Part shown: one piece after another, positions 31,500 to 50,294 of the stretch
How positions within the stretch are numbered: position 1 is the first letter of the stretch
Layout: each line of letters begins with the position of its first letter
Assembly: GCA_026989455.1 (NCBI GenBank)
Contig: JALSJH010000022.1
Coordinates: 29,146-93,145, forward strand
DNA: 64,000 nucleotides
Source of the DNA: Chromatiales bacterium
GTDB taxonomy: Bacteria; Pseudomonadota; Gammaproteobacteria; RBG-16-57-12
Reading direction: 5' to 3'
The notes under the pieces: model-generated
What the model was told of the DNA's origin: nothing
The model's input: the letters and a program-made list of their open reading frames with translations, nothing else
The model's database searches: none
Translations under genes and position numbers: made by a program

Positions 31500-33923
31500 A
31501 TGGGGTTTTTCAGTAAAAAAACATCTATTCTTTTGTTGATGGCGCTGCTGGTGCCTCTTCACGCGACTGCCGAAAGAATTTCAGATATCACTAACACAAA
31601 GCATAATCTTTCAATATCCAGCCCTGGGACGGTGAAGGCTGATATCGAGAATGAGCTTTGTGTTTTTTGTCATACCCCCCATAGTGCCAATATCAGCGTG
31701 CAAGCACCGCTTTGGAATCGTGCCATATCGGGTGCTACCTATGAGATGTACAGTTCGAGCTCAATGGAGTCGAGTGTGCCGGCAGCACCTTCTAACTCTT
31801 CGAAGCTCTGTTTAAGTTGCCATGATGGTGTGCTTGCGGTCGGCTCTGTCAATGTCCTTAACGGCCAGTTTACCGATCAGGTGGCAGAGAGTGAAGATAT
31901 TGCCATGAGTGGAACCGGCCTTGCGGGTGTTATGCCGGATGGCTCGGGTGCTAATAGCGGTTTTACCCGTAACTTGGGGGTAAACCTGACCAATGATCAC
32001 CCCATCTCATTTGCCTACGATAGTACGCTGGTTTTAAATGATGGCGAGTTACGTGATCCACTGGCAACACCCGCTATTGGTGTGCGCTCGCCGGGTGTGA
32101 GGCCGAGCATTCCGTTGATTGTTGATCATGTTGATGGTGCTGCCAAGCTTGAATGTGTGAGCTGTCACGATCCCCATATTCGGGACGACACGGGAGAGGA
32201 TATTAAATTCTTGCGTCTGAATCGTTTCCAGAATAACGCAGCGCCCGTTAACAGCGATTTTAATGCGGATAATGATATTATTTGTCTGGCTTGCCACAAT
32301 AAAGAGGGGTGGACCTATTCCGCGCATGCCAATGAGTTGGTGGCGGATGAGGTCTACACGGCCACGGCAGCAGCACAACGTGACTTCCCCAATGCGATTC
32401 CCGTGTGGCGAGCGGCCTGCCTGAATTGCCACGATACGCACACGGTGCAAGGCTCTAGGCGTTTGCTGCGAGAGGGGACGGATAGCACCACATCGCCTAA
32501 ATCTGGGGGCGGCTCTGCTATTGAAGAGAGTTGTTACCAGTGTCACTCAGCTACTGGTGCTACGCTCACCTCTCAGGGGCTTAATACTCAGGTTCCCGAT
32601 ATAAAAACAGATTTTATGCTAGCTCGGCGTATGCCCATTGCAACGTCCGATCAAGCGGCTACAAGCGAAGTGCATGATATCGGTACTCAAGGAGTAGGTT
32701 CGGGTAAAGATTTTCTTGAGTCTCCGCTGCTACTGGGTAAGGGTAATTTGGTTAATCGCCACGTTGAGTGTACCGATTGTCATAATCCTCATCGGGTGAC
32801 TAAAAAACAGTTGGCCAATAGTGACCCTAGCTTACCTGATAGTAGCGGCACCCATGTGCATACGGCAGGGGTTATGCATACCAATATTGCTTCTGGTGTG
32901 TTGCGAGGTTCTTGGGGGGTAGAGCCGGTCTATGTTCAGACCGAATTCAATACTTCTCCCATCAATTTTGAAATTAAAAAAGGACTCCCTGGAGCCACTA
33001 TGAACGTGACCGATGGCTGGGTGAGTCGTGAATATCAGGTCTGTTTGAAGTGTCACTCTAATTACGGCTTTGATGATGCTAATCCGCCTCAATTAGGTTC
33101 GTTTATCGGTGGAACCCCCTCAGGCACTAACGGTGTCACGGAGTACACCAATCAGGCGATGGAGTTTCAAGCGCCTGTTAACCACCAAGGTGAGGGTACT
33201 GCGCTGGGTACGGGTGCTCACGCCAATTATGCTACAAACAACCACCGCTCTTGGCACCCGGTGATGGGTGAGACTGGCCGTACCCCGGTTGAGCGGGGTG
33301 GGCTTGATGCCAATATTTTCTTGCCGCCTTTTAATACCGGGGTTGGCTCCCAAACCATGTATTGCTCAGACTGTCACGGTTCGGATACGGCGGCAGGTAC
33401 CGTGGTTCCAAATGGTGGTGAGAATGGTAATCCTTGGGGGCCACACGGCTCCAATAACAACTTCCTGCTTAAAGGTGGTTGGGATAATGAAACTGGCACT
33501 GGGCGCGCGGGTGATCTTTGCTTTAAGTGTCACAGCTACAATGACTATGCAGATCCTAATAATAATAACCCTCAGTTAAGTGGCTTTCGAGGCAGTGGCG
33601 GGCGTTGCGGGATGTCTTCAGCATTGATTTCAAGGAATCTGCACACCGCCCATGCGCGGCGTCTTGGTCGCATGGAGTGCACCTGGTGTCATGTGTCGGT
33701 GCCCCATGGCTGGAAAAACAAAGCCTTGCTGGTTAACCTCAATGATGTAGGCCCCGAGGCGGGTTTGCCTGCGGGTACGAGTGTCTCTACACCGTATACC
33801 AATGGGCCGTATTACAATCAAAGCATGTTGAAGGTTACCAACTTTGCGGTGAGTGGTAGCTGGGTTTCATCTGACTGTACCAGTCGTATGTGGATGATGA
33901 TGAGTTGTGGTAACCCGCCTTAG
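31500..33923 (+). CDS. Secreted undecaheme c-type cytochrome (doubled CXXCH family)
   Basis: Signal peptide and 11 CxxCH motifs, several of them as CxxCHxPH. Confidence 0.85.
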   Translation: MGFFSKKTSILLLMALLVPLHATAERISDITNTKHNLSISSPGTVKADIENELCVFCHTPHSANISVQAPLWNRAISGATYEMYSSSSMESSVPAAPSNSSKLCLSCHDGVLAVGSVNVLNGQFTDQVAESEDIAMSGTGLAGVMPDGSGANSGFTRNLGVNLTNDHPISFAYDSTLVLNDGELRDPLATPAIGVRSPGVRPSIPLIVDHVDGAAKLECVSCHDPHIRDDTGEDIKFLRLNRFQNNAAPVNSDFNADNDIICLACHNKEGWTYSAHANELVADEVYTATAAAQRDFPNAIPVWRAACLNCHDTHTVQGSRRLLREGTDSTTSPKSGGGSAIEESCYQCHSATGATLTSQGLNTQVPDIKTDFMLARRMPIATSDQAATSEVHDIGTQGVGSGKDFLESPLLLGKGNLVNRHVECTDCHNPHRVTKKQLANSDPSLPDSSGTHVHTAGVMHTNIASGVLRGSWGVEPVYVQTEFNTSPINFEIKKGLPGATMNVTDGWVSREYQVCLKCHSNYGFDDANPPQLGSFIGGTPSGTNGVTEYTNQAMEFQAPVNHQGEGTALGTGAHANYATNNHRSWHPVMGETGRTPVERGGLDANIFLPPFNTGVGSQTMYCSDCHGSDTAAGTVVPNGGENGNPWGPHGSNNNFLLKGGWDNETGTGRAGDLCFKCHSYNDYADPNNNNPQLSGFRGSGGRCGMSSALISRNLHTAHARRLGRMECTWCHVSVPHGWKNKALLVNLNDVGPEAGLPAGTSVSTPYTNGPYYNQSMLKVTNFAVSGSWVSSDCTSRMWMMMSCGNPP

Positions 33924-34314
33924 ACTGAATGATTCGTAAGTTATACGCACTTTCACTTGTCCACTGATTTCATGGAGCCTTCCTCATGGAGACTCTGGAG
34001 AAGTGATTGATGCTACCTTCTTCGCCCCCACCACCATGCGTGATTTTTATAAAAACCTCTAAGCTAATGGCCGGAAAAACACTCCTCTCTGATTGCCTGT
34101 CTTCTGTTTATATAGGCTATTTTCAACCCATCCAGTTCACACCCAGCATAGCAAGGTGTAAGAAGCTTGGGTGGGTGGTGGGTGGCTCCTCTGTTTTCTG
34201 ATCATTGGTAATCGTAGATGAATAGTATTGAAACTATCGATTGGCTTTAGGGTTGAATCGTATATACTCTTGGCTTCGACGAATTCAATCAACCACAGCA
34301 GGAGTGAGCTGACT

Positions 34315-35727
34315 ATGGCAAAGAAATATGATGCCGGTGTAAAAGAGTACCGCGATGTGTACTGGGCTGCGGATTATGTTCCGCTTGATACTGATCTTTT
34401 GGCATGCTTCAAGGTTACACCTCAAGATGGTGTACCGAATGAAGAGGCTGCTGCTGCTGTTGCGGCTGAGTCGTCAACAGGTACTTGGAGTACTGTATGG
34501 TCAGAGCTATTGACCGATATGGAGTTCTATAAAGGTCGTGCGTATCGCATTGAAGATGTTCCCGGTGACAAAGAGGCTTTCTACGCGTTCATCGCATATC
34601 CTCTCGATCTGTTCGAAGAGGGTTCAGTTGTCAACGTATTGACTTCATTAGTAGGTAACGTATTCGGCTTTAAAGCGATTAAGTTCCTGCGTCTGGAAGA
34701 TATCCGTTTCCCAATCGCATTTGTTAAGACTTGCCTCGGCCCACCAAGCGGCATCCAGGTAGAGCGTGACAAGTTGAATAAATACGGTCGCCCAATGCTG
34801 GGTTGTACTATCAAGCCTAAATTGGGTCTTTCTGCTAAAAACTACGGTCGTGCTGTTTATGAGTGTCTTCGTGGTGGTCTTGATCTGACTAAAGATGATG
34901 AGAATGTTAACTCTCAGCCGTTCATGCGCTGGCAGAATCGTTTCGAGTTTGTTGCGATGGCAGTAGAGAAAGCTCAGGCAGAGACAGGCGAAGTTAAGGG
35001 TCATTATCTGAATGTTACGGCTAATACACCTGAAGAGATGTATGAGCGTGCTGACTTCGCTAAGGATCTGGGTCAGCCAGTTATCATGCATGACTTCCTG
35101 ACAGGCGGTTTCACGGCTAATGGCGGTTTGGCTGCATGGTGTCGCAAGCACGGTATTTTGCTGCACATCCATCGTGCAATGCACGCAGTAATCGATCGTA
35201 ATCCTAAGCATGGTATCCACTTCCGCGTGCTGGCTAAATGCCTGCGTCTGTCGGGTGGTGATCATCTGCATACCGGTACGGTTGTTGGTAAGTTGGAAGG
35301 TGATCGTGCTTCAACACTGGGTTATGTTGATCTGCTACGTGAGTCATTTGTTCCTGAAGATCGTCGTCGTGGTATCTTCTTCGACCAGGATTGGGGTTCA
35401 ATGCCAGGCGTATTTGCAGTAGCTTCAGGTGGTATCCATGTATGGCACATGCCTGCGCTGGTTAACATCTTTGGTGATGATTCAATTCTACAGTTTGGTG
35501 GTGGTACACAGGGTCACCCATGGGGTAACGCTGCAGGTGCAGCTGCTAACCGTGTTGCTTTGGAAGCGTGTGTTAAAGCGCGTAACGAAGGTCGCGAACT
35601 GGAGAAAGAGTCAAAAGATATTATGGAAGGCGCTGCTCGTAATAGCCCAGAGCTTGCGGTTGCGATGGAGACTTGGAAAGAGATCAAGTTTGAATTCGAA
35701 ACGGTAGATAAACTGGACCTTAACTGA
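34315..35727 (+). CDS. cbbL: RuBisCO large subunit, form IA (carboxysomal)
   Basis: [17 protein letters not shown]... and active-site motifs ([17 protein letters not shown]). RBS aggagtg. ORF 34228 was trimmed to the canonical Met. Confidence 0.98.
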
Positions 35728-35761
35728 GTTTGTCAACGTCATCAAAGATTAGGAGAAAGCA

Positions 35762-36109
35762 ATGATTTCAAATAACACTATGGGTGATTATCGTACTACC
35801 CAGACTCTGGAAACTTTTTCTTTCCTGCCACCGCTGACACAGCAGGAAGTTCATGACCAGATTGCTTATATGATCGCTGAAGGTTTAACCCCTGCGATTG
35901 AGCATGAAGATCCATCAAAAGCCACTAGCTACTACTGGACTATGTGGAAACTTCCCTTCTTCGGTGAGAAAGATTTGAATGCAGTGGTTGCTGAGCTTGA
36001 GTCTTGTCACCGTACATACCCTGATCACCATGTTCGTCTGATCGGTTATGACAGCTATACCCAAAGTCAGGGTGTTTGCTTTGTCGTATACCGTGGTAAG
36101 ACGTGGTAA
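35762..36109 (+). CDS. cbbS: RuBisCO small subunit
   Basis: 115 aa. [12 protein letters not shown]...YYW.MWKLP is typical of form IA CbbS. Confidence 0.95.
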
Positions 36110-36122
36110 GACGTGGTTGATG

Positions 36123-36164
36123 GATTGGCAGTGGAGCTAACGTGTTAGTTAGTTGCTGCCAATC
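36123..36164 (+). other. Intergenic hairpin between cbbS and csoS2
   Basis: gattggcag ... ctgccaatc inverted repeat (9-bp stem). Confidence 0.4.
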
Positions 36165-36196
36165 AGGGTTTGTCAGTAATAGATGGGGTAATAGTA

Positions 36197-38128
36197 ATGG
36201 CCATTAAAGATTTATCAGGACGTAATGCCGCCAAAGCCCGTCGCGATGCGCAACTTAACGGCTCCGCGACACTGCCGGCTAAGGCCAGCTCGAGCACTGC
36301 TCCACGGGTTCGCCCAAAGAGAAGTGCAAGTGCTGATAGCCAGCCCTCGGTCACTGTGACAGCCAAGCCAACTATTAGTAATGCACCTCGTGCCAAAGTG
36401 AAGACAGCGAGTGCCGGTCGTGAAGCATCACGCTCACGCCGTCACGCGATGTCTTCTCGCGGCAAGAGTGGCGTTGCCAGTAGTGATCGTCAGCGTGTTT
36501 TGGATGTTGCGCGCACTGCTCGTAAGAGTGCTCAAACTCAAGATTGCGGTTGTGGTTGCAAAGGTAAAGGCGATTGTGGTGATGCCGGTGTAGCAGTGAA
36601 TTCTGCGCCAGCGGTATCAACAGCAAATGCATCGGCAACACCGCGCCGCAGTCGCCATGATATTAAGGTGGTAACGGCGAGTAGTGCGGGTCGCATCAAT
36701 TCAAAAATGCGTCGCGATGCGATGGCAGCACACGGTAAAACAGGTGTGGATAGCTACCGTAAAGGGGTTAGTTCAGCGCAGATGGTGCGCAAGCAAAACC
36801 CTGATATTACCGGTCGTGAATTGGCGCGCACCGTGCGTGCTCAGCGCAGTGTTAGTGGTGGCAGCCAGAGTGCGGCGCGCTCGACAGGTCGCCGCCGTCC
36901 GGAACGCCCTGGGAGAGACGTGAGTGGCACCGTTGTGTCGCACAGCGAAAAAACCACGGGTGATGAGACGGGGCTTTGTCGTTCAGTGACGGGGACAGAC
37001 TACTTCTCAAGTGAGGTTTTTACTGAGTTTTGTCAGGACGAGGCACCTAATGTGCCGCGTAAAGTCGAAGCCAGTGAGAATCTGAGTGGTGGAGTGATTA
37101 CCGCGAGTGGCAAGGTAGGTCTTAGCGAAAAGGTGACGGGTAATGATCGCGGTAGTTGTAATGCGGTTACCGGTATTGAGTATGTGGGTCGTGAGCAGTA
37201 TGACAACTTTTGCAGCAGCAAGCCTGAGCCAGGCAGTGCAAAAGTAAGCTTTTCACAGACAACGCGTGGTCAGGTTGTATCGGGTTCCAAGCCAGCAAGA
37301 TCAGATCGGGTTAGTGGCAACGAAGCAGGTTCATGCGAAGTTGTTACCGGCACGCCCTATACCGGTACTGAGCACTATCAAAAGTACTGTGATACGGGCG
37401 CTGTCAAACAGGTCAAGCTGCGCACTGTGCGCCCTGCTGTTAATGCCGGGCGTGATATTACTGGTGTTCAGCCAGGTGTTACCAGTTTGACGGGTGCTGG
37501 CAAAGGTGTCTGCAGCGAAGTGAGTGGTACTGCATATCTTGGTGCCGAGCAGCAGGTTGAAGCTTGTGGTGTGTCACCAGCGGCAGTAAATGAGCCAGAC
37601 TTTCCGCAGCCATTGACGGATGCCCCTTGGGGTGCGTTCAGTGTAGTTGCTCCCGCTCAGGCGAGTCAGCCTGTTCAGGAGAGTCGACCAACAGCGATAT
37701 CGGATTCAGTTACCGGTATTCGTTATGAGCAAGGCCGCGTCAGTGGTACTTTCTCTCTTGGTGAGGGTAAGATTACCGGAACTGAACAGTTTCGTTTTGG
37801 TAATCCAAAGAGTCGCAACGAGACAGTAGCTACTAGTGCGAAAGCTGCACCGGTGGAAGATGTCGTCTCAAAAGTGACAGGTGAAGGTCTTGATGCAGGT
37901 TTGAAAATAACCGGCAATGATTGGAACCGAGGTGATCGAGTGACGGGAACGGAAGGTAGGTCTGCGGTTAAGCGCAACCCTACACGACGTGGCCCTGTTA
38001 GTGCGATGCCTTCTTCAGAACCTAAGCGTAATGAAGATGTTGATCGTAATGATATCAACGTTACCGGTGGAAGTGGCAGCACAGAAAGTGGTGCCCTGGT
38101 GACGCTATCAGGCGGTGCCCGAGGGTAA
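36197..38128 (+). CDS. csoS2: Carboxysome assembly protein CsoS2
   Basis: N-terminal Arg-rich repeats (RxxxxxRxxxxxGK-like, e.g. GRNAAKARRDAQLNGS). Middle repeats with paired Cys and VTG/VSG motifs. No other homolog class shows this pattern. The start was trimmed to MAIKDLSG. Confidence 0.9.
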   Translation: MAIKDLSGRNAAKARRDAQLNGSATLPAKASSSTAPRVRPKRSASADSQPSVTVTAKPTISNAPRAKVKTASAGREASRSRRHAMSSRGKSGVASSDRQRVLDVARTARKSAQTQDCGCGCKGKGDCGDAGVAVNSAPAVSTANASATPRRSRHDIKVVTASSAGRINSKMRRDAMAAHGKTGVDSYRKGVSSAQMVRKQNPDITGRELARTVRAQRSVSGGSQSAARSTGRRRPERPGRDVSGTVVSHSEKTTGDETGLCRSVTGTDYFSSEVFTEFCQDEAPNVPRKVEASENLSGGVITASGKVGLSEKVTGNDRGSCNAVTGIEYVGREQYDNFCSSKPEPGSAKVSFSQTTRGQVVSGSKPARSDRVSGNEAGSCEVVTGTPYTGTEHYQKYCDTGAVKQVKLRTVRPAVNAGRDITGVQPGVTSLTGAGKGVCSEVSGTAYLGAEQQVEACGVSPAAVNEPDFPQPLTDAPWGAFSVVAPAQASQPVQESRPTAISDSVTGIRYEQGRVSGTFSLGEGKITGTEQFRFGNPKSRNETVATSAKAAPVEDVVSKVTGEGLDAGLKITGNDWNRGDRVTGTEGRSAVKRNPTRRGPVSAMPSSEPKRNEDVDRNDINVTGGSGSTESGALVTLSGGARG

Positions 38129-38235
38129 TCGCAAAGCGATCTATAGTGTCGAGTGGTGAGGCGCAGTTTGTGCCTTGCCCCTCAGCTCTTAAATGAAGTG
38201 ATGTTTAACAAGAATTTTGGGTAGGCGGGTTGAGA

Positions 38236-39741
38236 ATGTTCAACAAAAAGACAAAAAGCAGGCGTCCAATGCAACGGCAGCAGTCGATGCAGCGGAGTGC
38301 GCAGCCCCCGGGCCACGCGTTAGCCAGTGGCACTTTGTCGAATAATGCACTGCACCCGTTTACCCGCAGTGCTGAAAATAGCCGCCTGTTTGCGTATGAG
38401 CAGCAGGTGAAGCAGGCATTTTCAGCTATTGAACCTTTTTTGCAGCGTCTTTCGGCGATGCAACATGAGGCCGATTTTGAGGCGCGTGCCCAGCAGCTTG
38501 CCAGTAGTGAGCTTGGATTTGAATTGCCAGCAACACTACTTGTTGATAGCTGGATTAAACCATTGGATATTGGTCAGCTTTACGCATGGTGCGTATTTGA
38601 GACCTTCCGCAGCATGTCGGATGATTTTTTTGATAGCAAGCCGTTGGCGGATGGTGATGATGCAGAGTTTCAGGCATTTTTAGAGCAGTGTGGCTTTCAT
38701 ACATTGGATGTTTCGCCCTGCGCTGATGGTCGTTTGGCTCACGTTATTCGTTATGTGTTACGTCTGCCATATAGAGCAGTCCGTCGTAAATCATATGCGG
38801 GTGCCATGTTTGATGTTGATGATAGCTTGCAGAAGTGGAGTGAAACGGAGATGCGTCGCTACCGCGAAGGGTATCCGAATCAGGCGGATGCGCCGACCCG
38901 CTATCTGAAAGTTGCAGTTTACCACCACAGCTCAAGCCAGCCCAACTGCGAAGGATGTGCAGCGCATGGCAGTGATACTCAGCGAGCGGCAGATGCCGCG
39001 CTGGAGCGTCTAAAGGATTTTCGTCAAGCTGTGGAGAATAGTTTTTGCTGTGGTGCATCAATCGACTTGTTGCTGATTGGCCTAGATACGGACAATGATG
39101 TGATTCGCCTGCATCTACCTGATGCCGATGGTGAAATAGACGCTTCGAGCTATATCGATGCGGCTGAGCTGCATCAGGCAACAAAAAGTGCCTCAACGAG
39201 CGGTGCTGAGACAGTTATTAGTGAGTACTTAAAAGCACAGAGTAGCTCGTTGCCCAGCGAAGGCATGGTGCAGTTGGCAGCCCGTCTTTTGTGTGGCAAT
39301 TTGTCACAAATTGATTATGTGCGCCAGTACCACAGCGGCTGCTATCAGGATATTGGGCATCAAGAGTGTTTCATCGGCATGGGAATCGGTTTTGAAGAGG
39401 TTCAACTGCGCAACCTAACTTACTTCGCCTATCTGCAAACGGTAGAAGAAGGGGCTAAGGATATGGATGTGGGTATCAAAATCTTCACTGGGCTGAATGC
39501 CAACCGAGGTTTGCCGATTCCAGTGGTGATTCGCTATGACTATCACAGCCATGTGCCGGGCGCGAGAGCGCGGGCTGAGGGGCGTTGCCATCAGATGGAT
39601 GCAGCGCTACGCAGCCGCTTTAGTGAGTACGCTGAGCGCGGCCTTTTGCACACCTTGTTGATGGTGCGGGATTGCAGTAACGATGCCAAAGCGGAGACGG
39701 TTGGTAGTTCTCTGAAACTAAATGAACAGGTAGCTCACTAG
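38236..39741 (+). CDS. csoSCA: Carboxysomal carbonic anhydrase CsoSCA (CsoS3)
   Basis: About 500 aa, at the canonical position after csoS2. Cys/His-containing catalytic region. Confidence 0.85.
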   Translation: MFNKKTKSRRPMQRQQSMQRSAQPPGHALASGTLSNNALHPFTRSAENSRLFAYEQQVKQAFSAIEPFLQRLSAMQHEADFEARAQQLASSELGFELPATLLVDSWIKPLDIGQLYAWCVFETFRSMSDDFFDSKPLADGDDAEFQAFLEQCGFHTLDVSPCADGRLAHVIRYVLRLPYRAVRRKSYAGAMFDVDDSLQKWSETEMRRYREGYPNQADAPTRYLKVAVYHHSSSQPNCEGCAAHGSDTQRAADAALERLKDFRQAVENSFCCGASIDLLLIGLDTDNDVIRLHLPDADGEIDASSYIDAAELHQATKSASTSGAETVISEYLKAQSSSLPSEGMVQLAARLLCGNLSQIDYVRQYHSGCYQDIGHQECFIGMGIGFEEVQLRNLTYFAYLQTVEEGAKDMDVGIKIFTGLNANRGLPIPVVIRYDYHSHVPGARARAEGRCHQMDAALRSRFSEYAERGLLHTLLMVRDCSNDAKAETVGSSLKLNEQVAH

Positions 39742-39992
39742 TGAAAATTTGTAAGGTTGAAAAACCCCTGGTGGCGACAAACCGCATCCCTGGTATGGAA
39801 CACAAGCATCTGCAAGTTGTGCTGGATGGAACTACCCGTATGGTCGCTGTGGATGCAGTTGGTTGTAATCCGGGTGATTGGGTGATTTGTGTAGGCAGTT
39901 CTGCTGCTCGTGAAGCGGCTGGAAGTAAAGAGTACCCGAGTGATCTGACTATTGTTGGCATTATCGATTATTGGGGTGAGGCCGCGGACTGA
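39741..39992 (+). CDS. csoS4A: Carboxysome vertex (pentamer) protein CsoS4A (EutN/CcmL family)
   Basis: 83 aa, KICKVEKPLVATNRIPG..., with a GTG start overlapping the csoSCA stop. Confidence 0.85.
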   Translation: MKICKVEKPLVATNRIPGMEHKHLQVVLDGTTRMVAVDAVGCNPGDWVICVGSSAAREAAGSKEYPSDLTIVGIIDYWGEAAD

Positions 39993-40282
39993 TGGAGATC
40001 TTGCAAGTGACGGGGTCACTGGTTTGTACTTTGCGCCACCCGGGGCTTTATCAAAATAGCTTGCGGGTGTTGCGAAGCAGTAGTGGCAAGTTGCAGGTTG
40101 CAGTAGATACCTGCGGTTGTCGTGATGGCAACTGGGTGTTCGTAGTGAGTGGTTCTGCCGCACGTTATGCATGCGGAGATCCGACACTGATGACTGATCT
40201 TACGATTGGTGGGATTATCGATTTTTGGGATGAAGAAACAGGACAGACGGAGCCGTCTGCCGAAGGTAGTGCTCTAAGTTAG
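39992..40282 (+). CDS. csoS4B: Carboxysome vertex protein CsoS4B
   Basis: Paralog of CsoS4A (MEILQVTGSLVCTLRHPGL...). The ATG overlaps the csoS4A stop. Confidence 0.85.
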   Translation: MEILQVTGSLVCTLRHPGLYQNSLRVLRSSSGKLQVAVDTCGCRDGNWVFVVSGSAARYACGDPTLMTDLTIGGIIDFWDEETGQTEPSAEGSALS

Positions 40283-40336
40283 GGTGCGAGAATTTTAAAT
40301 TAACAAGTAACGATTTACCAAGACGGAGATAGAGCA

Positions 40337-40639
40337 ATGAGCGAAAACAATTATGGTATTGCACTGGGCATGATTGAAACACGCGGTTTGGTTCCTGCTA
40401 TTGAAGCAGCAGACGCAATGACTAAGGCTGCTGAAGTACGCCTGATTGGACGTGAGTTTGTTGGTGGCGGTTACGTGACCATTCTGGTTCGTGGTGAGAC
40501 TGGCGCTGTTAATGCTGCTGTCCGTGCGGGTGCTGATGCCTGTGAGCGTGTGGGCGATGGCCTGGTTGCTGCTCACATCATTGCACGTCCACACAAAGAA
40601 GTTGAGCCTGTGCTGAGCATGAGCATTGGCGCTAGCTAA
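40337..40639 (+). CDS. csoS1: Carboxysome shell hexamer protein CsoS1 (BMC-H), copy 1
   Basis: Canonical BMC domain (YGIALGMIETRGLVPAIEAADAMTKAAEV...). Confidence 0.95.
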   Translation: MSENNYGIALGMIETRGLVPAIEAADAMTKAAEVRLIGREFVGGGYVTILVRGETGAVNAAVRAGADACERVGDGLVAAHIIARPHKEVEPVLSMSIGAS

Positions 40640-40685
40640 ACCACCCTGTAACTTTAAATTTTTTGATTAATGAAGGAGTATCACC

Positions 40686-40976
40686 ATGGCAAATGAAACA
40701 TATGGTATTGCACTGGGCATGATTGAGACCCGCGGTTTAGTTCCTGCTATCGAAGCAGCGGACGCAATGACTAAAGCGGCAGAAGTACGTCTAATCGGAC
40801 GTGAGTTTGTTGGCGGCGGTTATGTGACTATCTTGGTTCGTGGCGAAACAGGTGCTGTTAATGCAGCTGTTCGTGCAGGCGCTGATGCTTGTGAGCGTGT
40901 TGGTGATGGCCTTGTGGCAGCACACATCATTGCGCGTCCGCACAAAGAAGTTGAGCCGGTACTTGGTAGCAAGTAA
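40686..40976 (+). CDS. csoS1: Carboxysome shell hexamer protein CsoS1 (BMC-H), copy 2
   Basis: Core is identical to copy 1 at the protein level. It differs at the N- and C-termini and at synonymous sites. Confidence 0.95.
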   Translation: MANETYGIALGMIETRGLVPAIEAADAMTKAAEVRLIGREFVGGGYVTILVRGETGAVNAAVRAGADACERVGDGLVAAHIIARPHKEVEPVLGSK

Positions 40977-40991
40977 AGGCAATACGGCGAT

Positions 40992-41047
40992 GAGTCGGGA
41001 TATGACTGGAAGTTCTCCCTCTTTTTTATTCCAGTCATCTCCGACTC
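40992..41047 (+). other. Long intergenic hairpin between csoS1 and the bfr-like gene (attenuator/terminator candidate)
   Basis: gagtcgggatatgactggaa ... ttccagtcatctccgactc is a near-perfect 19-bp inverted repeat. The loop is T-rich. Confidence 0.5.
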
Positions 41048-41077
41048 AACATCGTTTATAGAGAGGCGTCTAAAATA

Positions 41078-41521
41078 ATGACACAGGATCCAGTAGTTCT
41101 CGGATATCTGGGACGCGCACTAAGCTTTGAGTTGTCTGCGGTACAGCAGTATATGTCGCTGGCAAAATTATTAGAGCTACGTGGTATGCCTCAGGCCGGG
41201 AAAAAATTCCGACATGAAGCAATGACTGAGATGGAGCATGTAGAGCGCCTGATTGGTCGAATGCTGGCTTTGGGGGTTTCACCCAATACCAGTTGTCTAA
41301 AACGCCCGCGCCTTAACGGTGCATTGCCAGAGCTGATTAAACACATCAGTGATTTGGAGGGTGAGATTATCAACTTTTATGAACAGGCGGTGCTCTATTG
41401 TAGCCAACGCCAGGATCATGAAAACCGAATTTTTTTTGCAGCATTGCTCAAAGATGAGCAGCAACATGCTACTGAGCTTAATAGCTGGTGGCAGGACATC
41501 ATGGAAGGTAAAGCCATTTAG
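41078..41521 (+). CDS. Carboxysome-associated bacterioferritin-like (ferritin-fold) protein
   Basis: Ferritin-like four-helix motifs (E..E..H). This position is typical in alpha-carboxysome operons. Confidence 0.8.
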   Translation: MTQDPVVLGYLGRALSFELSAVQQYMSLAKLLELRGMPQAGKKFRHEAMTEMEHVERLIGRMLALGVSPNTSCLKRPRLNGALPELIKHISDLEGEIINFYEQAVLYCSQRQDHENRIFFAALLKDEQQHATELNSWWQDIMEGKAI

Positions 41522-41541
41522 CATATAGATAGTTGAGTTGA

Positions 41542-41832
41542 TTGAGGAGAGACACCATGGGCTTGAATTGGAGTTTGCGAAAAAACCCAGTACGCCTTGA
41601 ATGCCGTGTTGAGTTTTCTGATTATGATGAGACTCGTGATTTTCTTGATCGGGCTGCGGAGTTAGCGGAAAAGCAAGGGTATTATCCTGATATGAGCTTT
41701 GGCCGGACTCACGTCTCAATAACACTGAGTCCGTTGGATGACTCAGGTGTCATCAGTGATGAGTTGAAAAACTATGCCGATTTGATGGATGAGTTGGTTC
41801 CCACTGAGCAGATTGTCGACCAAACCAAGTGA
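41542..41832 (+). CDS. Pterin-4a-carbinolamine-dehydratase-like protein (acRAF-type RuBisCO assembly factor)
   Basis: PCD fold signature (GYYPDMSFGRTHVSITLSPLDDSGVISD). Follows the bfr-like gene, as in other cso operons. Confidence 0.75.
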   Translation: MRRDTMGLNWSLRKNPVRLECRVEFSDYDETRDFLDRAAELAEKQGYYPDMSFGRTHVSITLSPLDDSGVISDELKNYADLMDELVPTEQIVDQTK

Positions 41833-41854
41833 TTAATGGCAAAAGGATAACAAA

Positions 41855-42154
41855 ATGACTGTTAATGAAAAAAATGTGGCTGGCTCAAAAAGCTCCACAG
41901 CAGCCGCAAAGCCCGCGACCACAAAGAAAGCCCCGGCAGTTACCAAGCCGCAGGTTAAAAAAACGCCCTCCGCTAGCCGCACTAAACCAAAACCTTCAAC
42001 CGCTACGGTCGCGCCCAAGAAGCCTCAGGTTAAAAAGCCGACTTCTGCAGCCGCAACAAAATCACCTGCCAAAAGAGTGACTCCCCGTACTAAGGCTCAG
42101 CAGCCAGAAAGTTCAGGCTCACTCTCTGCTTCTCGCCGGGTTTGGCCTGACTAA
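41855..42154 (+). CDS. Lys/Pro/Ala/Thr-rich, intrinsically disordered basic protein (McdB-like or histone-H1/AlgP-like)
   Basis: 99 aa of low complexity (KPATTKKAPAVTKPQVKK...) ending ...RRVWPD. RBS aagga 8 nt upstream. Last gene of the cso operon. Confidence 0.5.
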   Translation: MTVNEKNVAGSKSSTAAAKPATTKKAPAVTKPQVKKTPSASRTKPKPSTATVAPKKPQVKKPTSAAATKSPAKRVTPRTKAQQPESSGSLSASRRVWPD

Positions 42155-42185
42155 GATAGTAAACGTGTTGTTGCGTTGATAATTC

Positions 42186-42326
42186 GTAACTATTCAGTGT
42201 GTTTAGATTTTGCTTCAAATCAAGGCATTTTCGCACGGAGAGAGGGAGCATATAGGAGGTGTGTGACCGATTGAGTACGAAAATAACGAAGAGTTGAGGG
42301 AAAAGATGAATACGCTGAGTAGTTAC
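42186..42326 (-). mobile_element. MITE-like element, copy C (inverted), with an 8-bp target-site duplication GATAATTC
   Basis: Reverse complement aligns full-length to copies A and B. Flanked by a perfect direct repeat gataattc at 42178-42185 and 42327-42334. Confidence 0.75.
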
Positions 42327-42428
42327 GATAATTCATATGTACGGTTTTGTTTATAACGAAACCATCACTGTCCAGAGATAATGTAGGTTGTTTAGGCGCC
42401 GCCTAGCAGCGAGTGTAAGGAGCTAAAA

Positions 42429-43469
42429 ATGTCGAATCTGAGCAATTTACTGTTACCCGCAGTACTGTTTTTTGCGCTTGGTGTCATCGCTAGATTAATC
42501 AAGTCAGATCTTAAATTCCCCCCTGACCTAGCAAAGGTTCTATCTATTTACCTATTGATGGCGATAGGTCTGCATGGTGGCTATGAGTTGGCTAAGGCTG
42601 ACCTAGTGATCGCTATGAACTCCATTATGTGGGCGCTGATTCTGGGCTTTACCTTGCCAATAATTGGCTATCTAGCACTGGTGATGACGCGTAAAGTTAA
42701 CCCACTGGATGCCGCTGCAATCTCGGCTCATTATGGTTCAGTGAGTGCTGGAACCTTTCTTACCGCAATCGCCTATCTTGATAATGTCGGTGTTACTTAC
42801 GAAACCTATCCATTGATCATGTTGGCAGTAATGGAGTCACCTGCGATTGTTGTAGGTTTGATCCTTGCCGCCAAAGCGCGTCATAGTATTGCTGCTCGTG
42901 AAAAAGCACCCATCTCGGGTGGAGGCGCTGATCTTACAACCACAGCCGTGGCTGCTGACAGCCCAGGCGGGAAGTTTACTGATCTTCTCCGCGAGGCCTT
43001 TACTAATGGCAGTGTAGTGGTGCTGATAGGCTCAATGGTTATTGGTGCTATCTCTACGCCAAGTGGCATGCAGCAGCTCTTCCCTTTCATCGATGAGATC
43101 TTCATGGGCGTGCTCTGCTTGTTCTTGTTCGATATGGGTATGGTTGCGGCACGTCGTATTGGTGACTTCCGCCAAGTGGGGTGGTTGCTGGCTCTATTCG
43201 GGATTGTTATGCCACTTTTTGGCGGCGTGATAGGTGCCTATGTTGGCCACTCTATTCTCGGCTTTAGTGTCGGTGGCGCAACGTTGGTTGCGGTGCTGGG
43301 TGCCAGCGCATCTTATATTGCGGTGCCGCCTGCTATGCGACTGGCAATACCAGAAGCTAATCCATCGTTTTATCTAACCCTCTCATTGGGAATAACCTTT
43401 CCCTTTAATGTTATAGTGGGTATACCCATTTACCACAGTTTGGTACAGGCAATGGCCGCAGCCGGTTGA
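42429..43469 (+). CDS. sbtA: Sodium-dependent bicarbonate transporter SbtA family permease
   Basis: About 10-TM permease with an SbtA/DUF897-like inverted-repeat architecture. Followed by a PII-like sbtB. Confidence 0.8.
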   Translation: MSNLSNLLLPAVLFFALGVIARLIKSDLKFPPDLAKVLSIYLLMAIGLHGGYELAKADLVIAMNSIMWALILGFTLPIIGYLALVMTRKVNPLDAAAISAHYGSVSAGTFLTAIAYLDNVGVTYETYPLIMLAVMESPAIVVGLILAAKARHSIAAREKAPISGGGADLTTTAVAADSPGGKFTDLLREAFTNGSVVVLIGSMVIGAISTPSGMQQLFPFIDEIFMGVLCLFLFDMGMVAARRIGDFRQVGWLLALFGIVMPLFGGVIGAYVGHSILGFSVGGATLVAVLGASASYIAVPPAMRLAIPEANPSFYLTLSLGITFPFNVIVGIPIYHSLVQAMAAAG

Positions 43470-43506
43470 GGCTGCTCTGCCCAATAGACTAATAAGAGGT
43501 GACCTA

Positions 43507-43827
43507 ATGATAAAGTTGTACCCTGAAAAGCTGCTGAGTATTATCACCAATGACTCGATGCAGGAACGCCTAGAGTGTATGTTCAAAAAATATGATATTT
43601 CTGGTTTTACCATTTTGCAAGCAACTGGGGAAGGCTCCTCAGGAATGGAATCAGCAATGTCTGGCTTTGATGGTAATATTCTGGTGAAAGTAATCGTCAC
43701 CGAGAGCCAGTTGCAGATCCTGCTTGAGAGCGTTGAACGTAAGTTGCAAAAAGGTTACCACCTTACGGTTTTTGTCTCTGATGTTGAGGTCATCACGCCT
43801 GAAAAATTTAAGAACAGATCGAAGTAG
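43507..43827 (+). CDS. sbtB: PII-like signalling protein SbtB
   Basis: 106-aa PII-fold protein (FKKYDISGFTILQATGEG...) directly downstream of sbtA. Confidence 0.8.
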   Translation: MIKLYPEKLLSIITNDSMQERLECMFKKYDISGFTILQATGEGSSGMESAMSGFDGNILVKVIVTESQLQILLESVERKLQKGYHLTVFVSDVEVITPEKFKNRSK

Positions 43828-43861
43828 CATTGGAAGTACCGTTGTATTTGACTGGAAATAG

Positions 43862-44881
43862 ATGATGACCGAACAGCGTGACTCCAGATTTAAAGATGGG
43901 TTGCCGGATTACCTGATTCGTAATACTACCTTTAGGCAGATGCAAATTTTTGAAGCGGTAGCGCGCTTGGGCAGCTTTACCCGTGCCGCTGAAGAGCTTT
44001 TTTTGACACAACCCACGGTCTCCACGCAGCTCAAGAAAATGACAGATGTGATGGGTTTACCGCTACTCGACCAATCATCTCGTCAAATTAAACCGACTGA
44101 GGCGGGTGAGGAGCTTTACCGCGCTGTACGGAGGATTTTTGACTCCTTGTCTGACCTTGATACGCGGATAGCGGCACTCAAGGGGTTGCAGCATGGCCGC
44201 TTGCGTTTAGGGGTTATCACCACCGCCAAGTATTTTGCTCCAGAGATATTGGGCGATTTTTGGCGTGAGTATCCAGGTGTGGATATTTCGCTAAAAGTGA
44301 CCAACCGCAACCGTATCATCGAACGCATTCAAAATAATGAAGACGACCTCTATATTTTGGGGCAACCACCGGATAAAGAGTTTAATCTTGCGGCCTACCC
44401 ATTTGCACCTAACCCGATGGTGGTGATTGCGGGAAAGGATCACCCCCTCTACCAGGAGTCCAGTATCTCTCTTGAGCGCTTGGCTGAAGAGCCTTTTATC
44501 TCACGAGAAGTTGGCTCAGGTATCCGCGATACCACAATGAAACGGTTTGCAGAGCATGGGCTATCACCCAATATTCGCATGGATTTGGGTAGTAATGAAG
44601 CGATTAAACATGCGGTAATCGGTGGCTTGGGGGTGGCTATTCTCTCCCTGCATACGCTGGTGTTGGATGGGGCAGATGGCCCACTTGGGGTGCTTGATGT
44701 TGAAGGTTTCCCCATCGCCAGAACGTGGTACCTTGCGCATCCAAAGGATAAAGAGCTCTCTCCTATGGCGCAGACTTTTCTCGATTTTGCTAGGGCGAGC
44801 GAACCGGTTATCAGTGAGCGCATGCGGAGTTTGTACGCGCAGTTTTCTGCCCGCCACAAGAGTATAGCGACTACTAAATAG
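43862..44881 (+). CDS. LysR-family transcriptional regulator (CbbR-like) embedded in the CCM cluster
   Basis: N-terminal HTH (FRQMQIFEAVARLGSFTRAAEELFLTQPTVSTQLKKM) and a LysR substrate-binding domain. Confidence 0.9.
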   Translation: MMTEQRDSRFKDGLPDYLIRNTTFRQMQIFEAVARLGSFTRAAEELFLTQPTVSTQLKKMTDVMGLPLLDQSSRQIKPTEAGEELYRAVRRIFDSLSDLDTRIAALKGLQHGRLRLGVITTAKYFAPEILGDFWREYPGVDISLKVTNRNRIIERIQNNEDDLYILGQPPDKEFNLAAYPFAPNPMVVIAGKDHPLYQESSISLERLAEEPFISREVGSGIRDTTMKRFAEHGLSPNIRMDLGSNEAIKHAVIGGLGVAILSLHTLVLDGADGPLGVLDVEGFPIARTWYLAHPKDKELSPMAQTFLDFARASEPVISERMRSLYAQFSARHKSIATTK

Positions 44882-44933
44882 TAGAGCTAAGCAGAAATAA
44901 TCTTTGAAATTTTCGAGGCGATAGAAGCGCAAT

Positions 44934-45575
44934 ATGATCAAGTTACGAACCTACATATTTATTGATTCGCTACAGCCTCAGCTAGCCGTCTATCTTGGCA
45001 CTGTTTCACAAGGCTTTTTACCTGTACCGGGCGATGCCTGTTTGTGGATTGAGGTTGCGCCAGGTATGGCCGTGCACAGGCTCACTGATGTCGCGCTTAA
45101 ATCCACCCGTGTCCATCTAGGTCAACAGGTTGTTGAGCGAGCTTTTGGCTCAATGATTTTTCACCATCGTGACCAGAGTGACGTTATTGAGGCGGGTAGC
45201 TCGGTTTTAAACCAGCTTAAAACCACTGAAGATCAACGTCAAAAGTGTCGTGTCGCCTGGAGTGAAGTGGTGCGCTCGATTACACCCGATCACGCGGTGT
45301 TGATTAATCGTCAAGATCGTAAAGGCTCGATGATTCTGCCTGGGCAGAGCCTGTTTATTTTAGAAACCGAACCAGCGGGCTATATTGTTTATGCGGCCAA
45401 TGAGGCGGAAAAGGCGGCAAATATCACTCTGGTTGACTGTCGTGCAGTGGGTGCTTTTGGTCGACTCACCCTTGCAGGGAAAGAGGCCGATATTGATGCG
45501 GCAGCCCACGCTGCAGTGGCTGCGGTGCAACGTCTCTCTGGGGTAGTTGCCCATGCGCAAGTTCACCACCACTGA
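44934..45575 (+). CDS. csoS1D: Tandem-BMC-domain shell protein (CsoS1D-like pseudohexamer)
   Basis: Two degenerate BMC-like domains. The second contains [29 protein letters not shown]. Confidence 0.65.
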
Positions 45576-45653
45576 TTTGACCTGAGTCAAGGTTGTTTTA
45601 GGCCAATGTGATTGACTGTTCTACCTCTCTATAAACTTCTGTAGGGTATATGT

Positions 45654-47921
45654 ATGAATGAAGCACCACAAAATGGGCTAAAAGGCCTCAAACATTGGCG
45701 TTACGATCTGCTGGCAGGCCTACAGGTTGCGCTGGTCTCACTGCCTCTCTCTCTGGGTATCGCTATTGCATCGGGTGCCCCTCCGGTTACCGGTCTTATC
45801 TCAGCTATTATCGCGGGTTTTATTTTCCCTTTTCTAGGGGGTGCCTATGTCACCATTAGCGGTCCTGCTGCTGGCCTAGCTCCTGCTTTATTAGCGGGAA
45901 TGTTGTTGCTGGGTGGTGGTGATCTGGCGGTGGGTTATCCGCTGTTGTTGGTGGCTATCTGTCTTACCGGCATGGTGCAAATTATATTGGCTTTTTTTAA
46001 GACCGGCCGTTACGCAATTTTCCTTCCCGTTACTGTGGTAGAGGCGATGCTCGCCGCTATTGGGCTGATGATTATTATCAAACAGATTCCATCTCTGATG
46101 GGAGCTATATCACCCGCATCACAAAGTATGCTGGAGACGATCAGTAAACTACCCTTGGCGATTCCTCAGCTGGAGTGGAGTATCTTTTTTATTGGCGCTC
46201 TGAGTCTATTCTTGATGTTTTATCTGAATGCCTCGCGCCATGATTGGATGCGTAAAATCCCACCGCCACTACTTGTTGCCTGTCTTGGTATCGGCTTGGG
46301 TTATCTTTTTAACCTTGATGGTAAATTTCTGATTACCATGCCAGAAAATCTACTGGAAGGTGGGATTACATTTCCAGCTTTTGATGAAGTGTTGAACCGT
46401 CCTGAGTTGTGGTGGAGTGTACTGTTGGTGGTGATTACACTGACGCTGATCGATGGCGTTGAATCATTGGCAACCATCAAGGCGGTGGACAAAATTGATC
46501 CTTTTCAGCGTAAATCAGATGCTAATATTACCTTGCGCACCATGGGTATTTCCAATTCACTCTCCAGTGTTTTTGGTGGCTTAACGATTATTCCGGGTGG
46601 TGTCAAAAGCCGCGTTAATATCGATGCTGGTGGGCGTACATTGTGGGCGAATTTTTATAACGCTATTTTTCTACTTATTTTCCTGTTTGTGGCTATCGAT
46701 GTCATTGCTAGGGTTCCTCTGGCTGCGATTGCGGCAATCTTGATCTACGTTGGTTGGAAATTATGTGAATACAAAGTATTCACCAAAACCTACGCTATTG
46801 GCCGTGATCAGATTGTAATTTTCGTTATTACGGTTCTCGCTATTTTAGCGACAGATCTGCTGTCTGGGATTCTACTAGGTGTTGCGGCAGAAGTGTTGAT
46901 GCTGCTCTATCTGCTGACACCATCATTTCGCGCTGTATTGACCGGGCGACTGGGGTTGGGGCAATCTTTTTCATTGGTGTGGGTAAATCTGCGAGGCCTA
47001 TTTTGTGATCCGGTGATTACGGTTGCCCAGAAGGCGCGTAATGGTGAGCCTCACTATGAGGTGACATTATCATCTGTTGTCTGCTTTAATCTGATACATC
47101 TTGATAAGCTGCTTGCCAATCTCCCTCCACAGGCGGGTGTTACGCTGATTATTACTGAGTCTGGTCGTATTATTGATCATACCGGTATGGAGTATCTTCA
47201 CCAGTTCCAAGATGAGTGCATGCGCGATAAGCGGGCTTTTGAGCTGCTGGGGCTGGAAAATTTTTTCCAATTCACTAATCACTCACTCTCAGCACGTATG
47301 CAGGATTCAACCGTGCTCAAGGAGGAGCGGAAGCGCTCGGAACGTGAAATCCAGATGGAGAAGTTCGCACAGCAGTGGGGGCTGAAGTTAGAGCTGGGTA
47401 CGGCCACGATTCATAATGAACATGACTTCGTCTACCTGCGTCGGGGTTCAGACAAGCAGGAGTGTAACGTGATGTCTGGCAGTGTCCATGGCTATGATAT
47501 TCGATTGGCTGACTACAGTCATACGGCTGCACCAGACTACTATTCAAAACATTGGCACACTACGATCACTTCACAATGCCCTGTTTCAGGTGTTGCTGAT
47601 TTTGTTATTGCTCCTGGCCATTATCTACGACGTTATCTGGCCGATTATCGTGAAATTGAGTCAGTGAGAGAGGGCGCTCTTCCTGGTAATTATCGACTTT
47701 ACGCCAAAGAGGGTGAAGATCCTTCACCCTACATCTCTTCTGGACTACTCGCCTTTTTGCAAAGCAATGAGGGACTCTACCTAGAGGTTAGAAACGGTAA
47801 CATGTTGGCTTTCAATCGAAATAAAGAGTTGCTGAGTGCAGCGGAAATAGAGCAGCTGTTTGCGCTGGTGGAGATGTTAAATGGGGCTTGTACCGAAGCG
47901 TTGAGTCAAAACGAAGAGTAA
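45654..47921 (+). CDS. SulP-family anion transporter (BicA-like bicarbonate transporter candidate) with STAS domain and an unassigned ~200-aa C-terminal extension
   Basis: SulP signature LKHWRYDLLAGLQVALVSLPLSLGIAIASGAPPVTGL and a STAS-like region. At 755 aa it is longer than typical SulP proteins. Confidence 0.88.
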   Translation: MNEAPQNGLKGLKHWRYDLLAGLQVALVSLPLSLGIAIASGAPPVTGLISAIIAGFIFPFLGGAYVTISGPAAGLAPALLAGMLLLGGGDLAVGYPLLLVAICLTGMVQIILAFFKTGRYAIFLPVTVVEAMLAAIGLMIIIKQIPSLMGAISPASQSMLETISKLPLAIPQLEWSIFFIGALSLFLMFYLNASRHDWMRKIPPPLLVACLGIGLGYLFNLDGKFLITMPENLLEGGITFPAFDEVLNRPELWWSVLLVVITLTLIDGVESLATIKAVDKIDPFQRKSDANITLRTMGISNSLSSVFGGLTIIPGGVKSRVNIDAGGRTLWANFYNAIFLLIFLFVAIDVIARVPLAAIAAILIYVGWKLCEYKVFTKTYAIGRDQIVIFVITVLAILATDLLSGILLGVAAEVLMLLYLLTPSFRAVLTGRLGLGQSFSLVWVNLRGLFCDPVITVAQKARNGEPHYEVTLSSVVCFNLIHLDKLLANLPPQAGVTLIITESGRIIDHTGMEYLHQFQDECMRDKRAFELLGLENFFQFTNHSLSARMQDSTVLKEERKRSEREIQMEKFAQQWGLKLELGTATIHNEHDFVYLRRGSDKQECNVMSGSVHGYDIRLADYSHTAAPDYYSKHWHTTITSQCPVSGVADFVIAPGHYLRRYLADYREIESVREGALPGNYRLYAKEGEDPSPYISSGLLAFLQSNEGLYLEVRNGNMLAFNRNKELLSAAEIEQLFALVEMLNGACTEALSQNEE

Positions 47922-48723: not shown

Positions 48724-49521
48724 TTGAACATCTGGGCGGTTGCCAATCAGAAAGGGGGGGTTGGTAAAACAACGACAACGGTCTCCCTGGCAGGACTGCT
48801 CTCCGCCAAGGGGTATCGTACCTTAGTGGTTGATATGGATCCCCATGGCTCGCTAACGGTCTATTTTGGCCATGACCCTGACACCATAGAAAGGAGTGTC
48901 TATTCGCTGTTCCAAGTGCCTAACATTGCTTCCAGCGACATGCCCAGGCGGGTGATAAAGCAGACTCGCTTTGAAGGTCTTGATTTACTACCCGCATCGA
49001 CGGCTATGGCAACGCTTGACCGCCAGTTGGGAACTCAGGATGGTAAAGGGTTGGTAATCCTTAGGGCGCTACAGCAATTGGCTGATCGTTATGACTATGT
49101 TTTGATCGACTGTCCACCGATTTTAGGGGTTTTAATGGTTAACGCCATGGCGGCCTGTCAGAGCTTATTGATTCCGGTGCAGACCGAGTTTTTGGCGTTG
49201 AAGGGGCTGGAGAGAATGATGCGTACTACCGCGATGATTACTAGAGCACGCAGAAGCCCGCTCGGGTTGCACATTGTTCCCACGATGTTTGATCGTCGCA
49301 CCCGCGCCTCCCATGAGGCACTTAAGCAGTTACAGAGCGATTACCCCGAGCAGCTCTGGGATGCCGTGATACCCATCGATACCCAGTTTCGTGAGGCGAG
49401 CCGCAAAGGGGTGCCTCTGCCCATTATGCGAGCGAATAGCCGCGGCTCGATTGCTTATCGTGAGCTACTGACGTGGCTGCAGGAGATCTATCCAGCTGAC
49501 AGCAGAGCAGCCGAGTCGTGA
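48724..49521 (+). CDS. parC: ParA/MinD-family ATPase of the chemotaxis-associated ParC type
   Basis: Deviant Walker A (NQKGGVGKTTT). Resembles Vibrio ParC. Followed by a ParP-like CheW-domain protein and cheW. Start is TTG. Confidence 0.8.
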   Translation: MNIWAVANQKGGVGKTTTTVSLAGLLSAKGYRTLVVDMDPHGSLTVYFGHDPDTIERSVYSLFQVPNIASSDMPRRVIKQTRFEGLDLLPASTAMATLDRQLGTQDGKGLVILRALQQLADRYDYVLIDCPPILGVLMVNAMAACQSLLIPVQTEFLALKGLERMMRTTAMITRARRSPLGLHIVPTMFDRRTRASHEALKQLQSDYPEQLWDAVIPIDTQFREASRKGVPLPIMRANSRGSIAYRELLTWLQEIYPADSRAAES

Positions 49522-50219
49522 TGGCACAGTTTGAAGATGAAAATGACTCTAAAGCGCTGGTAGAGCAGAAGCAGGCGCTGAGCAATTATCTGGATGCTCT
49601 GTTCAGGGAGCTGCCAGTGATTGAACCTGAACCCATAGCTAGCCCTGTGGCGGATGAGGTTGTGGTGGCTAAAGTGGCCGCAACGGATCTGCCTAAAGAA
49701 CCCGTAGTGGCATCCTCGGAGGAGGTGACTGCTCAGGCGGCTGAAAATGAAGAGCCAGTGCCTGTATACTTTCAGCCCACGGCACCCTTTCAGGTGCTGT
49801 TTTTTAGTCTTGGTAAGTTGAATCTTGCGGTGCCATTGGAACATCTTTCGGGTGTTTTGAAAGTTGCCGATGAGAAGGTGACCCCGATCCCTGGCTATGC
49901 GGAGTGGCACCTTGGATTGATGAAATACCACGGGGCAACGGTGAGTGTCATCGATACGGCAAAACTGATCATGCCTGCCCATCGTCAGGACGTTGTCCAA
50001 GATCAACGTAAATATCGCTACTTTATTCTATTGGGTGAGCGTCGCTGGGGGCTGGGCTGCCACGCCATAGCAGAAGTGGTAAAACTTGATCCCGGTGAAG
50101 TGAAGTGGCGTAAAAATCGCACTCTTCAGCCATGGTTGGCGGGCACGGTTATCAATAAAATGTGTGCATTGATTGATGTTGATGGTTTCCTTAAACTTCT
50201 AAGCAAGGGTTACTTATAA
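49518..50219 (+). CDS. parP: ParP-like protein (acidic disordered N-terminus plus CheW-like domain)
   Basis: The N-terminal E/P/A-rich region is followed by a CheW-like fold. Position between parC and cheW. Confidence 0.65.
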   Translation: MMAQFEDENDSKALVEQKQALSNYLDALFRELPVIEPEPIASPVADEVVVAKVAATDLPKEPVVASSEEVTAQAAENEEPVPVYFQPTAPFQVLFFSLGKLNLAVPLEHLSGVLKVADEKVTPIPGYAEWHLGLMKYHGATVSVIDTAKLIMPAHRQDVVQDQRKYRYFILLGERRWGLGCHAIAEVVKLDPGEVKWRKNRTLQPWLAGTVINKMCALIDVDGFLKLLSKGYL

Positions 50220-50294
50220 AGCTTTGTTGTTGCTTGACGATACAATCAACCTTAGAAGTAGAAAGAATTAATCCTAAGCATGGGGATAAAATAG

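Follow-up and report, generated by a model that had tools for sequence, protein, structure and literature searches.

The window, meaning the whole 64-kb stretch of DNA that was analysed, carries on its forward strand an alpha-carboxysome (cso) block composed of the genes cbbL, cbbS, csoS2, csoSCA, csoS4A, csoS4B, two copies of csoS1, a ferritin-like gene, and a Pterin_4a (acRAF-type) gene (Table 1). Pfam matches in this block comprise the large and small RuBisCO subunits, CsoS2, CsoSCA, two EutN/CcmL proteins (csoS4A and csoS4B), and two BMC proteins (csoS1). The mechanically delimited open reading frame (ORF) of cbbL (34228-35727, + strand) starts with a TTG at 34228, but an ATG at 34315 (MAKKYDAG...) is the likelier start, and the RuBisCO N-terminal domain begins 16 residues past it. 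Just 5' of cbbL, positions 31500-33923 (+) encode an 807-aa multihaem cytochrome with 11 CxxCH motifs and a match to an MtrC/MtrF-like domain, and positions 28471-30639 (+) encode a 722-aa protein in which an N-terminal SEC-C motif is combined with many TPR repeats and a GT41 (O-GlcNAc-transferase-like) domain. At the other end of the block, the stop codon of the Pterin_4a gene at 41832 stands directly before a 99-aa ORF, which is the subject of this work and which, as is characteristic of the alpha-McdB proteins discussed below, is encoded in the cso operon region.

Table 1. Features of the cso region and of the downstream ParA cluster in the 64-kb window.
Feature	Position	Strand	Basis and remarks
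Alpha-carboxysome (cso) block	34315..41832	+	Pfam; gene calls on the identical contig L003
Ferritin-like gene	41078-41521	+	Pfam
Ribosome-binding site AAGGA	41843..41847	+	7 nt 5' of the ATG; read off the sequence
mcdB-type gene (very probably orphan, alpha-McdB type 2)	41855..42154	+	99 aa; composition, motif, profile match, and conservation in L001
N-terminus MTVNEK	41855..41872	+	Identical in P0001; differs from DKTGxKLVxSIRKTK
Two imperfect basic repeats, APAVTKPQVKKTPSAS (residues 26-41) and TVAPKKPQVKKPTSAA (residues 51-66)	41930..42052	+	Translation
C-terminal SRRVWPD with the R(V/I)WPD signature	42131..42151	+	Presumed, by analogy, to be a carboxysome-shell binding peptide
Chemotaxis-type ParA cluster	48724-51157	+	ParA, CheW-domain protein with an N-terminal extension of ~90 aa, second CheW, DUF2802

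The gene is followed by a gap (42155-42428) of 274 nt, against 129 nt at the corresponding place of L001, the contig of a close relative described below. No + strand terminator, sigma-70-like promoter, or Rfam match was predicted in this gap, and a Rfam gathering scan of the whole window returned zero RNA families. Beyond the gap, a carbon-concentrating module (42429-47921, +) continues on the same strand with genes for a SbtA-like transporter (Sbt_1 match, E 1.6e-112), a 106-aa PII-like protein, a LysR regulator, a CsoS1D-type shell protein with tandem BMC domains, and a SulP transporter of 755 aa in which the Pfam matches cover only residues 17-393, with ~360 C-terminal residues beyond them. 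The succession of an orphan mcdB, the SbtA-like/PII-like pair, and then LysR and CsoS1D is also found in five other loci (L001, L008, L013, L017, and L059). In the original prediction, the cso operon closed with the 99-aa ORF. This ORF does end the core block, but with no + strand terminator predicted behind it and carbon-concentrating genes following on the same strand, it is not confirmed as the end of the transcript.

The ORF begins with an ATG and comprises 99 codons plus the stop; its translation is MTVNEKNVAGSKSSTAAAKPATTKKAPAVTKPQVKKTPSASRTKPKPSTATVAPKKPQVKKPTSAAATKSPAKRVTPRTKAQQPESSGSLSASRRVWPD. Several elements of the original prediction could be read directly from the sequence, namely the good ribosome-binding site at an ORF that follows the acRAF-type gene, the low-complexity, K/P/A/T-rich basic character of the product, and its SRRVWPD end with a Trp close to the C-terminus. 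Lys (17 residues), Ala (16), Thr, Ser, and Pro (13 each) dominate the protein, so that A/P/K/S/T make up 73% of it, whereas F/I/L/M/V/W/Y account for 11%; the net charge is +19, the pI 11.6, and the GRAVY index -0.95. The sole Trp is the third residue from the C-terminus, inside the SRRVWPD motif, and the extended C-terminal peptide reads ...SLSASRRVWPD. Of the 731 stop-to-stop ORFs that reach at least 40 aa in the window, only the 99-aa ORF ends in [VI]WPD. The interior of the protein contains two imperfect basic repeats (Table 1), and Tandem Repeats Finder detected no DNA-level tandem repeat in the gene. AlphaFold2, run with a two-sequence alignment, modelled neither helix nor strand (mean pLDDT 62, pTM 0.12), so the protein is predicted to be intrinsically disordered over essentially its whole length, as the original prediction had supposed.

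One close homologue, P0001 (89 aa), is encoded in identical synteny on the NCBI MAG contig L001 (positions 4818-5087). It was the sole homologue retrieved with the 99-aa protein in a word-indexed search of 5.8 billion proteins, and it alone matched in an exhaustive phmmer search of 1.84 billion representatives; it is itself a cso-operon protein ending in WPD. The two proteins are 60.6% identical, compared with 87-100% for the neighbouring proteins of the window and L001. The two genes differ by two indels, of 8 and 2 codons, both in frame, and the 8-codon deletion in the L001 gene sits right after the second KKPQVKK repeat. Both ends of the protein (MTVNEK and SRRVWPD) are kept between the two sequences, as are the cores KPKPSTAT and KKPQVK, the latter being the core of the internal repeat. 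Between the window and L001, the dN of the gene (0.205) is about tenfold that of its neighbours (0.012-0.019) at similar dS, and its dN/dS is 0.34 against 0.02-0.07 for three neighbours. The 99-aa ORF is a real gene, and with this level of identity, its in-frame indels, its kept ends and cores, and this dN/dS, it behaves like one encoding a fast-evolving yet selected disordered protein.

These traits can be compared with those of the carboxysome-positioning protein McdB as surveyed across alpha-carboxysome proteobacteria by MacCready et al. 2021 (Mol Microbiol, PMC8359340); every one of their 250 genomes (100%) had McdB, and ~91% had McdA. In that survey, all alpha-McdBs end in V(I)WPD and are hydrophilic, disordered, and biased towards A/P/K/S/T, and one of three gene arrangements has mcdB alone inside the cso operon, either in genomes where no McdA was found or in genomes with a distant mcdA accompanied by a second mcdB. 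In the orphan paralogues the charged N-terminus is missing, and the operons that carry them group in one clade (PMC8359340); a review in mBio the same year named them alpha-McdB type 2 (PMC8262871). Basalla et al. 2024 (PMC11321042) gave R(V/I)WPD as the C-terminal consensus and 51-169 aa as the length range, and established that the invariant Trp is needed for association with carboxysomes, for which the last 10 residues of the Halothiobacillus neapolitanus McdB are both necessary and sufficient. The window protein has this C-terminus, with the invariant Trp-Pro-Asp in ...SRRVWPD, and its length, its A/P/K/S/T content, and its GRAVY index are those of an alpha-McdB.

To place the gene among its counterparts, 80 cso loci were fetched with a CsoS1 query, of which 43 had the proteobacterial gene order and 37 (594 kb, 7817 ORFs) were of the cyanobacterial type. 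In 39 of the 43 proteobacterial loci, a single ORF of 40 aa or more ended in [VI]WPD, always on the operon strand and 1-2.5 kb after csoS1, which is the slot of the window ORF; the 37 cyanobacterial-type loci had none. Three of the four exceptions (L024, L056, and L070) end before or within this position. The fourth, L022, has at the McdB position (9248-9472, +) a 74-aa ORF with 45% A/P/K/S/T that ends in GGLRWPD, with Leu where the literature reports an invariant V/I. Across the 39 McdB ORFs, V/I-W-P-D is universal and Arg occupies position -5 in 37. A profile built from them ranked the window ORF first of 733 window ORFs (E 2.9e-5, 21 bits), the next one having an E of 0.62, and scored the window protein at 23.5 bits against a maximum of 4.8 for 1000 shuffled versions, all 1000 of which it surpassed. 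This match is partly circular because a [VI]WPD ending was the criterion by which the ORFs behind the profile were selected; no such selection acted on the S-x-R-R flank, on composition, or on genomic position, and the shuffled sequences provide a further control. Scanning the protein against Pfam (E up to 10) and NCBIfam (E up to 1) brought up no meaningful match. Since single-sequence searches find one homologue only, membership in the family rests on motif, position, and composition and not on alignable homology, and distant McdBs cannot be reached by a single-sequence search. The original prediction had put forward an orphan McdB-like candidate, and the RRVWPD end, the size, the composition, the predicted disorder, the slot shared with 39 of 43 loci, the lack of an adjacent McdA, and the match, partly circular as it is, to an alpha-McdB profile all support that proposal.

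The 39 McdB ORFs fall into two groups, 24 that follow a 206-211-aa ParA (alpha-McdA) and 15 that do not. A profile of the N-terminal motif DKTGxKLVxS[IM]RKTK separates them sharply, giving 14-41 bits on all 24 McdA-adjacent McdBs and no more than 0.3 bits on any of the 15 other orphans; it scored 0.0 bits on the window protein and did not match P0001. The two groups also differ in the flank that precedes R[VI]WPD. In McdA-adjacent McdBs this flank reads D-P-Y-Q-S-G (the type 1 counterpart peptide is ...DPYQSGRRVWPD), 21 of 24 carrying Y at -10 and 17 of 24 carrying Q at -9, whereas the orphans have F at -9 in 7 of 15 and often S at -7; in the window protein, positions -10 and -9 are L and S. 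To judge from these sequences, the two McdB types may contact the shell differently. In the six cso operons nearest to that of the window by CsoSCA identity (60-77%; L008, L014, L059, L017, L005, and L013), the order is always ferritin-like gene, acRAF, and orphan mcdB, whereas in McdA-containing operons the CsoSCA is 55-63% identical to that of the window. This pattern fits the published clade of orphan operons. One of the six, L014, belongs to a MAG labelled Candidatus Tenderia. The original prediction had made its reading depend on the gene being present in the cso operons of close relatives, and there it is found, as the gene itself in L001 and as an orphan mcdB in the nearest operons.

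The window protein thus has in common with type 1 McdB of H. neapolitanus the R(V/I)WPD signature, disorder, small size, basic charge, A/P/K/S/T richness and, presumably by analogy, shell binding by the Trp-containing C-terminal peptide; it differs from it in that its gene follows a Pterin_4a/acRAF-type gene and not mcdA, in its lack of the charged DKTGxKLVxSIRKTK-type N-terminus, and in the residues at -10 and -9. With the published type 2 proteins (PMC8359340, PMC8262871) it shares the position in the cso operon after an acRAF-type gene without an adjacent mcdA, the R-V-W-P-D end, the predicted full disorder, the A/P/K/S/T bias, the lack of the charged N-terminal motif, and membership in a cso-operon group in which every operon has an orphan. 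It departs from them by its internal repeat and by being longer (99 aa, where the median of the 15 other orphans is 64 aa) and more basic (+19, where their median is +6). In length and charge its body resembles those of type 1 proteins (median 79 aa and +11.5, with net charges ranging from +6 to +16).

The low complexity of the sequence, its lack of any family match, and the alternative ORFs that overlap it on both strands might suggest a chance ORF in the spacer after the cso operon and no real gene at all. Against this stand the ribosome-binding site at its proper distance, the conservation of position and frame in L001 with in-frame indels and a dN/dS of 0.34, and a terminal motif kept across 39 loci over a background of zero; this reading is effectively refuted, and we leave it only a trace of probability. 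The basic composition invites another interpretation, also raised in the original prediction, in which an H1/AlgP/Hc1-like nucleoid protein has been recruited to the operon, its K/P/A/T-rich chain binding DNA non-specifically and its WPD end being incidental. The net charge of +19, the pI of 11.6, and segments of the KKP, TKP, and SPAK types do recall histone H1 tails, and the protein is more basic than the other orphan McdBs. Yet the McdBs that partner McdA are also strongly basic (+6 to +16), so that basic charge and K/P/A content are family traits and not histone-like evidence. No H1, Hc1, HC2, or AlgP-type match appeared in Pfam or NCBIfam at the thresholds given above, the NCBIfam scan yielding only noise (E 0.095, DnaX linker), and the only phmmer match was P0001, a WPD-ending protein of a cso operon. 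Nor is the C-terminal motif incidental, since the SRRVWPD-type end and the position after acRAF are common to 39 other cso loci and absent from the 594 kb of control loci. The likeness to H1-like and AlgP-type proteins is one of composition only (Lys/Pro/Ala-rich, very basic, low complexity), with no detectable homology and with a carboxysome C-terminal motif and an operon position that are foreign to them. The original prediction would have yielded to clear H1/AlgP homology combined with dissimilarity to McdB profiles; no such homology was found and the partly circular McdB profile did match, and we consider its nucleoid-protein alternative highly improbable. Because the protein is extreme among orphans in length and charge and has an internal imperfect repeat, direct DNA binding may nevertheless be an added property of it.

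The remaining alternative concerns a working ParA partner, with the protein acting as a type 1-like McdB together with an ATPase from another part of the genome, or with the ParA-type protein encoded at 48724. The length, charge, and A/P/K/S/T content of the window protein are closer to those of McdA-adjacent McdBs than to those of other orphans, and in the window, as also in L001, this ParA gene shares the strand of the 99-aa ORF and follows it at a distance of 6.6 kb. The N-terminal motif present in all 24 McdA-adjacent McdBs is missing, though (0.0 bits), and the ParA protein itself is unlike McdAs, being 265 aa long instead of 206-211 aa, 24-31% identical to McdAs that are 47-92% identical among themselves, and scoring 51.6 bits with a profile of 24 McdAs on which true McdAs reach 310-354 bits. 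It is also followed not by a small WPD-ending ORF but by a 233-aa protein with a CheW domain from residue 92, a second CheW, and DUF2802, and we rejected it as an McdA candidate. We take this succession of ParA, N-extended CheW, CheW, and DUF2802 to be a ParC/ParP chemotaxis arrangement. It resembles that system in its ParA gene and in the N-terminally extended CheW-domain protein encoded next to it (48724-50219), and as a separate system with its own adaptor it is linked to the 99-aa protein by proximity only, a proximity not conserved beyond the closest relative, since L008, L013, L017, and L059 have no ParA in the 10 kb downstream of the cso region. The original prediction is borne out on these points, as it had found no ParA-type McdA next to the gene and had regarded the only ParA-like gene nearby as a chemotaxis ParC; the gene upstream is of the Pterin_4a/acRAF type, the sole deviant Walker A motif in the window is that of this ParA (at 48751), and no McdA was found within the 64 kb. 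A functional pairing with a ParA partner appears quite unlikely.

We conclude that the window gene is very probably an orphan mcdB encoding an alpha-McdB of type 2, a class whose defining companions, a distant mcdA and a second mcdB, would lie outside the 64 kb covered here; inside the window, the gene sits in the cso operon with no neighbouring mcdA and its product has no charged N-terminal motif. Carboxysome association through the C-terminal Trp and formation of condensates in vitro are known only for the McdB of H. neapolitanus, and in the literature searched we found no experiments on any type 2 alpha-McdB, so the shell binding considered here is extrapolated from the type 1 protein of another species. 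To judge from the position of the gene and its ribosome-binding site, the 99-aa protein would be made together with the carboxysome proteins. By analogy with H. neapolitanus, its ...SRRVWPD peptide, with the invariant Trp at its centre, would then dock on the alpha-carboxysome shell, leaving the remaining ~90 residues as an unfolded, repetitive, polycationic chain that may coat the shell and probably makes condensate-like multivalent contacts. The protein does not have the N-terminal motif of McdA-adjacent McdBs and therefore probably does not itself stimulate McdA; more likely, it would modulate the surface properties, spacing, or aggregation of carboxysomes, acting alongside an McdA/McdB type 1 pair encoded elsewhere or independently of it. 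A bolder version supposes that the organism has no McdA at all and that this long, basic (+19) type 2 McdB is a true orphan that would position or segregate carboxysomes with no ATPase dedicated to the task. Its H1-like polycationic chain might tether the shell-bound protein directly to nucleoid DNA, with carboxysomes hitch-hiking on the nucleoid, or it might borrow a different ParA, such as the ParC-like protein. We think this version unlikely.

The class to which we assign the protein was already published in 2021, together with its signature motif and precisely this arrangement of genes, and in this respect the finding is ordinary. The window protein adds a further, rather extreme example of a type 2 orphan. 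It also illustrates a simple annotation rule, by which a small ORF after acRAF ending in R[VI]WPD is an McdB, of type 1 if it has an N-terminal KLVxSIRKTK and of type 2 if it does not; the 99-aa protein itself had no match to a Pfam or NCBIfam model. The sharp split between orphan and McdA-linked proteins, visible in the N-terminal motif as well as in the residues that flank the Trp motif, provides the residues to mutate in order to examine the role of type 2 McdBs.
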